From Escherichia coli O157:H7 (GTDB lineage: Bacteria > Pseudomonadota > Gammaproteobacteria > Enterobacterales > Enterobacteriaceae), in the NCBI RefSeq assembly GCF_013167455.1, contig NZ_CP038328.1: 64,000 bases of DNA; one strand, written 5' to 3'. Positions within the stretch are counted from its first letter, which is position 1. Every line of letters begins with the position of its first letter. Below are positions 1-3,000 of this stretch, piece after piece. The position numbers are program-made.

Positions 1-3000
1 CATTGGAGAACAGATGATTGATGTCTTAGGGCCGGAGAAACGCAGACGGCGTACCACACAGGAAAAGATCGCAATTGTTCAGCAGAGCTTTGAACCGGGG
101 ATGACGGTCTCCCTCGTTGCCCGGCAACATGGTGTAGCAGCCAGCCAGTTATTTCTCTGGCGTAAGCAATACTAGGAAGGAAGTCTTACTGCTGTCGCCG
201 CCGGAGAACAGGTTGTTCCTGCCTCTGAACTTGCTGCCGCCATGAAGCAGATTAAAGAACTCCAGCGCCTGCTCGGCAAGAAAACGATGGAAAATGAACT
301 CCTCAAAGAAGCCGTTGAATATGGACGGGCAAAAAAGTGGATAGCGCACGCGCCCTTATTGCCCGGGGATGGGGAGTAAGCTTAGTCAGCCGTTGTCTCC
401 GGGTGTCGCGTGCGCAGTTGTACGTCATTCTCAGACGAACCGATGACTGGATGGATGGCCGCCGCAGTCGTCACACTGATGATACGGATGTGCTTCTCCG
501 TATACACCATGTTATCGGAGAGCTGCCCACGTATGGTTATCGTCGGGTATGGGCGCTGCTTCGCAGACAGGCAGAACTTGATGGTATGCCTGCGATCAAT
601 GCCAAACGTGTTTACCGGATCATGCGCCAGAATGCGCTGTTGCTTGAGCGAAAACCTACTGTACCGCCATCGAAACGGGCACATACAGGCAGAGTGGCCG
701 TGAAAGAAAGCAATCAGCGATGGTGCTCTGACGGGTTCGAGTTCTGCTGTGATAACGGAGAGAGACTGCGTGTCACGTTCGCGCTGGACTGCTGTGATCG
801 TGAGGCACTGCACTGGGCGGTGACTACCGGCGGCTTCAACAGTGAAACAGTACAGGACGTCATGCTGGGAGCGGTGGAACGCCGCTTCGGCAACGATCTT
901 CCGTCGTCTCCAGTGGAGTGGCTGACGGATAATGGTTCATGCTACCGGGCTAATGAAACACGCCAGTTCGCCCGGATGTTGGGACTTGAACCGAAGAACA
1001 CGGCGGTGCGGAGTCCGGAGAGTAACGGAATAGCAGAGAACTTCGTGAAAACGATAAAGCGTGACTACATCAGTATCATGCCCAAACCAGACGGGTTAAC
1101 GGCAGCAAAGAACCTTGCAGAGGCGTTCGAGCATTATAACGAATGGCATCCGCATAGTGCGCTGGGTTATCGCTCGCCACGGGAATATCTGCGGCAGCGG
1201 GCTTGTAATGGGTTAAGTGATAACAGATGTCTGGAAATATAGGGGCAAATCCAGATGGATTTATCGTAATAAAGACAACAGCCAAATAATGAAAAACATA
1301 AAATTTTATCTGCATGGCAAAGAGATACCAGCAGAAAGAATATTAGATACACCAGAGTGGAAAGACTACCGTCCAAAATACTCCGGTTCCACATATAAAT
1401 ATTCTTAATGATAGCAAAAAATATATTTTCGATATAATCAATGTTATGATTAAAGAGTATTTCATCAGGGCAGGTAAAAACAGAGTAAATCAGCAAAAGA
1501 AGCTGATCTTCAGCGATACTGACACTAACTGACGGTTTAAGCGGTCGTATGAAGCAGCAGCTTTCCGACGGACTGCCATGCGGATCGTTTACCTTTTGGG
1601 CTATTCCGCCCGTCATCAAGCGGCTCACGAGTACTGAGTTTATCAGGATGATATTGCTGACAATGGTAATTCGTTGACCGATGTGTACTTCACTACATAT
1701 CGGTCAACACCGTACTGCCGTGCAACATCTCCAAGATGTAGCATCGTTTTTACCAGAGGAGGCAGGACATAGATTGTAAAAAAACTATTTCGATGCATTT
1801 ACCATTGAGATATTTTCCTTCATACCAAAAGTTCTATCAATTATCGCAAGTGGTTCAACAGGTGCGGTCTTATCTATAACCCAACCACTCTCTGTAACAC
1901 TTCCTCGTGTGATATATTTTGCCTTTACTTTAACAACTATTAGATAATGCTCACGACTAAACCGATCAGCAACGCTAAGATCCGATGTGTATTCAGGCAA
2001 TATTCTTCCAATACGTACCTGCTGTTGTGCCATATATTCATCTGGTGCTTTTACATTTGGATTTGAATCAGGAAGCCCTCCAGCAGTTTTATATTCAACG
2101 ATATTTTCAGCTTGAATACCGGTTGTGCCGCGACACAATATGATGTCTGAATCGGACAGTTCTATGTGCCCCTCCTTAATTTTCGAATAAATTTGTTTAA
2201 TACTATGTTCTGGAGTTGGTACTATTTCAGAAGATAAAGCAGGCAACGTGTCTTCAAGCACCGGAGAATCATCGTATATATCCAACAAATCCTCATCATA
2301 CCCAATATCTCCTTCTCTTAACTGAGAATACGGTTTATCTATGTATCTAATAACTCCCCCACCATGAAGACCTTCTGATTTATAAAATGTACCATCAGCG
2401 TCACGAAAGAAATAAACATTAACCTGTTTGTTATTTATAGAATACCTACCTGAATATAATTCCGAATTTGGCTCCTTAGTTAAATCTACTGATTCCCCCT
2501 TGTAGACTATTTTATTTGGTGTCTCTGAAGATATGGGGTTAAAGGATTCTATATATCTATAAAAACCACCGCCAACTTTCTCATAATACCCATACTTAGA
2601 AGAGTTAAGATCTACTGCACTATATCTATTCCCCCCACGATCCTGTTTCATTTCTAATATTTTAGATTGTTTTTCGTTATATATAAAGTCATTACCATCA
2701 ATTGACTCAATTACAGAATAGAAATTAGCATTATTACTCGGATGATAAATAATATTATCATTAATGTTTTTTTCTATATGCTTCAAAGCCTCATATTTTA
2801 TCTGCAGCGAACGGCTATGTAAGTCAGAGCGAGTGCCTGGAACAAAGTCCATTCCAATACGTACAGCCCCCTGAATATAATCACAGATATTGCTAGATTC
2901 TTTTACTATAGCACTATGTAAAATGCTACTTACACCAGACAATGCATTATAACCAGGTACAGCTCCCATCGCCATATTCCAAATTGTACCTAAAAAATGT

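Follow-up and report, generated by a model that had tools for sequence, protein, structure and literature searches.

IS2 copy at the start of the window

The window analysed here is a stretch of 64,000 nucleotides from Escherichia coli O157:H7 (assembly GCF_013167455.1, contig NZ_CP038328.1), and it opens inside an IS2 element, the only one found within the 64 kb. The first 77 bp of this element, with the 42-bp left inverted repeat (IRL) and the promoter, fall immediately before position 1. Many E. coli O157:H7 chromosomes match the beginning of the window at 100% identity, and the full 1331-bp IS2 was read in one identical O157:H7 record, that of strain PV15-279 (L001, 5923-7253). The features identified at the locus, in window coordinates, are:

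1..1253, + strand: IS2 element (IS2 positions 78-1331 of 1331)
14..379, + strand: insC/orfA frame, 121 codons, from ATG at 14 to TAA at 377-379, with an in-frame amber at codon 54
14..175, + strand: residual open reading frame of 53 aa with a truncated H+HTH domain (ORF listing)
172..176: CTAGG, mutated form of the sole Dcm site of IS2 (CCAGG), with the inner, methylated C changed
173..175, + strand: TAG amber codon (Q54*), C to T at window position 173, which is IS2 position 251
331..337, + strand: A6G (AAAAAAG) site of -1 programmed frameshifting, intact
337..1242, + strand: orfB/insD frame, open, 301 codons, DDE triad intact
1213..1253, + strand: 41-bp right inverted repeat (IRR), identical to K-12 on comparison of the ends
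1254..1408, + strand: 3' fragment of a gogB-like effector gene, cut exactly at the right end of IS2 (PGAP annotation)

The ORF listing shows a second fragment of orfA beginning at ATG 242. In its general construction the copy has the traits of IS2 and of the IS3 family: a length of ~1.33 kb, imperfect terminal inverted repeats (IRL 42 bp, IRR 41 bp), and overlapping orfA and orfB (-1) reading frames joined via the A6G programmed frameshift. The conceptual OrfAB fusion retains all three residues D240, D306 and E342 (OrfAB numbering). An autonomous IS2, which transposes through figure-of-eight and minicircle intermediates, also possesses an uninterrupted orfA, which supplies OrfA and the N-terminus of OrfAB, and here that frame is broken by the TAG at codon 54. 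The O157:H7 copy is an IS2 pseudo-element and no autonomous IS2.

Comparison with IS2A of E. coli K-12

The reference used was IS2A of K-12 MG1655 (insC1/insD1; NC_000913.3, 381260-382590). The O157 element is 99.5% identical to it over 1331 bp, with seven substitutions and no indels. At element position 251 the K-12 codon is CAG (Gln54) and the O157 codon is TAG; Q54* is the sole amino-acid difference in OrfA, the other 120 codons matching. The first-pass annotation had placed insC of an IS2 copy at 14-379, with TAG at codon 54 in place of CAG and an otherwise intact frame, and the alignment bears out each of these points; it also shows that the reference does not share the stop.

Three of the remaining substitutions, at IS2 positions 32, 606 and 900, are standing polymorphisms that intact IS2 copies also have; the A32G change in the IRL of the O157 copy, for example, is also carried by the intact copy GF130. 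Three others are private, in the sense that they are found in none of the K-12, GF130, Nissle, pFORC64.3 and Shigella boydii copies:

421, + strand: C to T, H137Y in OrfAB
658, + strand: G to A, A216T in OrfAB
1040, + strand: G to A, S343N in OrfAB, directly after the catalytic E342

All three are G:C to A:T changes, all are missense, and all lie at sites other than Dcm sites.

In summary of the two elements, the O157 copy and K-12 IS2A have the same 1331-bp length, IRR, A6G frameshift site, orfA/orfB layout and DDE triad. In contrast to K-12 IS2A, the O157 copy carries the amber at Q54 of orfA, H137Y, A216T and S343N in the OrfB part and A32G in the IRL, lacks a 5-bp target duplication and is flanked by two unrelated truncated genes. 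It also resembles the degraded IS pseudogenes of EHEC and Shigella, in having a nonsense lesion, drift-like substitutions and, in some strains (O145), a secondary IS insertion. Unlike these pseudogenes, it is full length with both ends intact, and it differs from the wild-type element by one decisive base.

Genomic context

The gene order leading to the element is potB, espK, a hypothetical gene, an nleB fragment and the 3' fragment of a Mutator/IS256-family transposase gene; after IS2 follow the 3' fragment of gogB, espN, nleL, phage tail genes and, further on, the excisionase and integrase genes and potC. A lambdoid prophage occupies the interval between potB and potC, and the element thus lies among its effector cargo genes, ~2.5 kb in from the end nearer potB. 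In the window's strain this prophage is ~35 kb longer than in PV15-279, and the two are collinear at both ends. The ends of the prophage are set by the integrase and att sites, not by the IS, and the earlier proposal that a disabled IS2 would immobilise the island boundary is not supported for an element in this position. As a separate observation, ycfT is intact in the window; the 'internal stop' annotated for this gene in PV15-279 is absent here.

No 5-bp direct target duplication, the mark of a simple insertion, was found at the ends of IS2, where the left flank reads ...ATGAC and the right flank GATGG..., and both flanking genes, for the Mutator/IS256-family transposase and for gogB, are truncated exactly at the IS2 ends. 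The missing duplication together with two unrelated truncated genes indicates that IS2 had a part in a past rearrangement, and implies that the junction was shaped by an IS2-mediated adjacent deletion or by recombination between two IS2 copies. The rearranged junction and the amber occur together in every extant carrier, and either event may have come first.

Distribution of the amber allele

The allele was searched for with a 55-mer probe having the variant base at position 28, so that every 28-base megablast seed spans the variant. Among 5,426 complete E. coli genomes, 307 contained the T-allele 55-mer, 297 of these at ≥99% identity; almost every one was O157:H7, with several O145 strains in addition, and the number of places per genome had a median of 1 and a maximum of 2. 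The C-allele 55-mer matched 12,373 places in 3,428 genomes. The exact junctions between IS2 and its flanks were present in about 304 genomes (left) and about 298 genomes (right). A 350-nt probe that ran from the left flank through IS2 position 290, with C at position 251, gave no perfect match in the 5,426 genomes; the best matches, at 99.7%, came from both O157:H7 and O145 and carried T as the single mismatch. The amber is present in every genome with this insertion and is a fixed allele.

The O145 strain RM9467 shares both locus and stop, with a second IS3-family element inserted in IS2 at 429-431. A match on the 'plasmid' p1RM9154-C1 was considered as an independent amber event and rejected, because it is the espK locus of O145 once more. 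A single IS2 place is usual on O157:H7 chromosomes, and a second IS2-like place occurs in a few O157 records; among IS2-bearing E. coli the median is 3 and the maximum 41. On identical sequence, the RefSeq/PGAP label is that of a pseudogene, 'IS3-like element IS2 family transposase; programmed frameshift; internal stop'. A literature search on IS2 in O157 returned nothing specific to this copy.

Origin of the amber codon

By motif enumeration, IS2A of K-12 contains exactly one CCWGG site, CCAGG at 250-254. IS2 position 251 is the inner, methylated C of this site, and the change found in O157 converts it to CTAGG. In orfA and orfB a single transition can create a stop codon in 38 ways, and of these only the change at position 251 falls on a Dcm cytosine. 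CCWGG sites are hotspots of C to T change, at which deamination of 5-methylcytosine produces a T:G mismatch that Vsr very-short-patch (VSP) repair counteracts only partly (PMC2715241, PMC13250602). The dcm-vsr genes were detected in 5358 of the 5426 genomes, including the T-allele O157 strains Al Ain and CEC13091. Amber hotspots of exactly this type, CAG in CCAGG changing to TAG, are said to exist at Dcm sites in lacI and lambda cI, in work attributed to Coulondre and Miller in 1978 and to Lieb in 1991. The O157 copy has the same change in the same context, in a host with dcm and vsr; it differs from those cases in that the allele is natural, fixed and carried by a mobile element instead of a laboratory reporter, with a Dcm dependence that we infer.

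TAG at codon 54 recurs in five more insertions of IS2 or IS2-like elements, at unrelated sites or in unrelated backgrounds:

pFORC64.3, an IncF plasmid, next to traL: full length, near-canonical
Shigella boydii plasmid, next to ospB: full length, near-canonical
pUTAK-3-type plasmids, CP53 chromosome and pZ1323: diverged remnants

One further match to the T-allele probe, on an Escherichia albertii plasmid, reads CTTGG (Leu) with no stop and was left out. Since an IS must be mobile to reach its site, the TAG copies are most simply explained as four to six independent events, each after insertion.

As a control, the 37 other transition-to-stop alleles were searched for with probes having 25-nt flanks and six mismatching spacer bases. 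Control designs made of plain concatenated 55-mers, or with 1-nt spacers, leaked, because 27 nt of wild-type flank need just one further matching base, by chance or polymorphism, to form a 28-mer megablast seed; their output was discarded. Across the 37 control sites, 159 genomes (172 records) and 202 plasmids carried a nonsense allele, a tally of genomes and plasmids and not of independent events per site, and among the matches listed such alleles fell on at least 10 of the sites; stops away from position 251 are not rare. The recurrence test is suggestive of the Dcm hotspot as the cause.

The amber could instead be an ordinary random G:C to A:T transition that fell on the Dcm site by coincidence. 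This explanation is compatible with the three private substitutions, which are of the same type at non-Dcm sites, with the nonsense alleles seen at other sites across IS2 copies in the control search, and with the small fraction that CCWGG sites contribute to all G:C to A:T transitions genome-wide (PMC13250602). It is nevertheless unlikely: a priori only one of the 38 transition-to-stop routes lies at the Dcm cytosine, dcm is present in the lineage, and the same TAG appears at four to six unrelated sites or backgrounds, whereas the average control site, in the matches listed, is represented by far fewer lineages. On the circumstantial evidence of its sequence context and recurrence, the amber probably arose at the Dcm site by deamination of 5-methylcytosine.

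The recurrence would lose its meaning as a series of separate events if the TAG-bearing copies descended from one amber mutant, spread in trans by an active IS2 or by recombination. The O157, pFORC64.3 and S. boydii copies differ by just 5-9 nt over 1331 bp and all have G32, C606 and G900; these three may have a common origin through mobilisation in trans, and Shigella and many E. coli possess many active IS2 copies as a possible source of transposase. Against such a common ancestor for all the copies, which we regard as improbable, position 274 and the three private changes set the O157 copy apart from those of pFORC64.3 and S. boydii. The pUTAK-3, CP53 and pZ1323 copies stand 5-10% apart from the canonical group and among themselves, and are closer than this to C-allele copies. 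Furthermore, IS3-family transposases act preferentially in cis.

Deamination at the Dcm site, the reading preferred here, leads to a further, tentative idea, which we hold to be possible and somewhat short of probable. IS2 may have a built-in weak point, as the methylated cytosine of its sole Dcm site is the first base of a CAG codon in the DNA-binding domain of the transposase, and methylation by the host may kill copies there repeatedly and independently, at up to six unrelated sites in the present data. CTAGG is a substrate context for Vsr, so a return to CAG might come more easily to TAG copies than to IS2 copies with other nonsense mutations, and methylation and VSP repair might then act as a slow off/on toggle.

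Predicted consequence of the amber codon

OrfAB has 409 residues, with an H+HTH DNA-binding domain at 13-60 (predicted HTH 31-50), an LZ-like oligomerisation motif at 70-103 within a dimerisation region at 58-105, and a catalytic core at 236-398 containing D240, D306 and E342; the LZ-like motif is needed for end binding and transposition, and S57 and L58 mutants lose function (Lewis et al. 2011, PMC3219604). The role of the A6G frameshift site is described in the same work (PMC3219604). The stop at codon 54 lies inside the H+HTH domain and upstream of the LZ-like motif, the A6G site and the DDE core. It cuts the binding domain short and removes everything downstream, so that neither OrfA nor OrfAB would be expected to be made, apart from trace natural read-through. 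The first-pass annotation had argued that both products need this N-terminus and that the copy is probably transposition-defective; the domain layout agrees with the first statement, and a transposition defect is well supported by inference from it. The population picture fits an immobile element, with one copy per chromosome in most O157 records and identical junctions in ~300 genomes.

The possible ways around the stop look weak. Translational restart at the next in-frame ATG (window 242, Met78) was rejected as a rescue: there is no Shine-Dalgarno-like sequence upstream (gcugccgcc), and the product would miss the whole DNA-binding domain. Neither a suppressor tRNA gene nor any other tRNA gene was found within the 64-kb window. 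The OrfAB of another IS2 might in principle still move the copy in trans, given that both ends and the frameshift site are undamaged.

It may be asked whether the copy is still functional, either through useful suppression or read-through of the UAG or through retention of the 53-aa HTH peptide as a trans-acting repressor of IS2-type ends. Natural read-through of UAG in E. coli inserts mainly Gln, via near-cognate tRNA-Gln, at a very low level, and as Gln is the wild-type residue, a trace of authentic protein could be formed. The ends, the frameshift site and the DDE triad are intact, and the 53-aa peptide scores as Pfam HTH_Tnp_1 (E=7e-15, profile positions 2-47 of 75). However, the peptide is without the dimerisation motif: the binding domain runs to residue 60, with loss of function on mutation of S57 or L58, and binding needs the LZ-like motif. 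No tRNA gene lies in the window to suppress the stop, and no daughter copies are seen in the ~300 genomes. The private changes, all missense and one of them beside E342, are what drift and not purifying selection would be expected to leave, and O145 strains tolerate a further IS insertion in the element. A functional role of either kind is therefore very improbable. An error of sequencing or assembly at window position 173, for which it can be said only that the change is a single base, is refuted, and its probability is negligible: 297 complete genomes, assembled independently by many laboratories and on many platforms, have the same allele, and none has C at the locus.

Status and significance of the copy

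Taken together, the full-length IS2 is very probably a fixed, non-autonomous fossil in O157:H7 and O145, with orfA killed by a C to T amber mutation of likely Dcm origin. In the proposed course of events, a single C to T transition would have changed codon 54 of orfA from CAG (Gln) to TAG, most likely when 5-methylcytosine at the sole Dcm site was deaminated and escaped Vsr very-short-patch repair. Translation would then end after 53 residues, inside the H+HTH domain, with the loss of both the OrfA regulator and the OrfAB transposase. After inactivation the copy would have been free to drift, which may account for its three private G:C to A:T missense changes, one of them beside E342. It has remained at a single site and left no daughter copies.

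The lesion in this copy is already on public record, as hundreds of O157:H7 genomes in RefSeq have the gene labelled as a pseudogene. The mutational mechanism itself is also known; the additions made here are the probable origin of the amber at the Dcm site and its repeated occurrence. In practical terms, the junctions and the stop are common to O157:H7 and O145 and provide a stable lineage marker, and the IS2 in the effector region of the prophage would be unable by itself to drive further rearrangements. The finding otherwise matters little beyond its value as a likely instance, in nature, of the textbook 5-methylcytosine hotspot at work in a mobile element.

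Junctions of the IS2 element

The amber-bearing IS2 copy is bounded by two junctions, the left of which was located in the corresponding locus of O157:H7 strain PV15-279 (L001), the source of the annotation and of the left flank:
L001 5704-5922 / 5923, upstream of the window: IS2 left junction
Window 1254: IS2 right junction

Two unrelated genes abut the element, and both are cut exactly where the IS ends. On the left lies a Mutator/IS256-family transposase remnant, represented by its last ~72 aa, with an nleB fragment located slightly further out; on the right lies a 3' fragment of a gogB-like gene. 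No 5-bp target-site duplication was found at the IS2 ends when the flanks (left ...ATGAC, right GATGG...) were compared. Taken with the truncation of unrelated genes on both sides, this implies a past IS2-mediated deletion or IS2 × IS2 recombination in the effector region.

Distribution in O145 and O157

In O145 strains, as read at the same locus of RM9467-C1 (L004 3278-5921), the amber-bearing IS2 is interrupted by an IS3-family element for which the annotation names an AL1L pseudoknot frameshift signal. This second element entered the IS2 at position 429-431, where 3 bp overlap or are duplicated. The O145 and O157:H7 lineages thus have the dead IS2 and its two junctions in common. In another O145 record, NZ_CP031350.1 (L010), the chromosomal espK-hyp-IS2 locus is present in a sequence deposited as “plasmid p1RM9154-C1” (187 kb, non-mobilizable). 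This sequence could be part of the chromosome that was assigned to the wrong replicon, or else a large region that was excised or duplicated.

The sequence search revealed two IS2-like places instead of one in a few O157 chromosomes, e.g. PV15-279, 86-24 and 644-PT8, and the 55-mer probe specific for the TAG-bearing allele matches two places each in strains Z1723 and NCCP 13914. The second places may represent fragments, prophage-region duplications or extra IS2 copies.

Sequence context of the amber codon and a private missense change

CTAG is depleted in E. coli, and the depletion is attributed to very-short-patch (VSP) repair. The 64-kb window contains 21 CTAG in total, and 6 CTAGG (one of them at the amber codon) against 85 CCAGG, a rarity consistent with this known depletion.

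OrfAB also carries a private missense change, S343N (window 1040), directly after the catalytic glutamate E342. Since substitutions at the neighbouring A341 shift activity both up and down (Lewis et al., PMC3219604), a copy reverted from TAG to CAG might still not behave as wild-type IS2.

Strain differences and prophage decay

Compared to PV15-279, the window shows a single C/T difference at 1696 (+ strand), in the stretch separating the right flank of the IS2 from espN, and 3 mismatches in the first 8.3 kb, which indicates that the window strain is another O157:H7 strain than that of the annotation record. The ycfT gene (window ~52983-54056) is an intact 357-codon ORF here, but the PV15-279 annotation lists it as a pseudogene that carries an internal stop. 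Window 8340-43831 comprises ~35 kb of prophage DNA without a counterpart in PV15-279, where only a ~15-kb remnant (tail-fibre fragments, a truncated exonuclease gene, xis and int) is left from potB to potC; the decay of the potB/potC prophage therefore varies between O157 strains.
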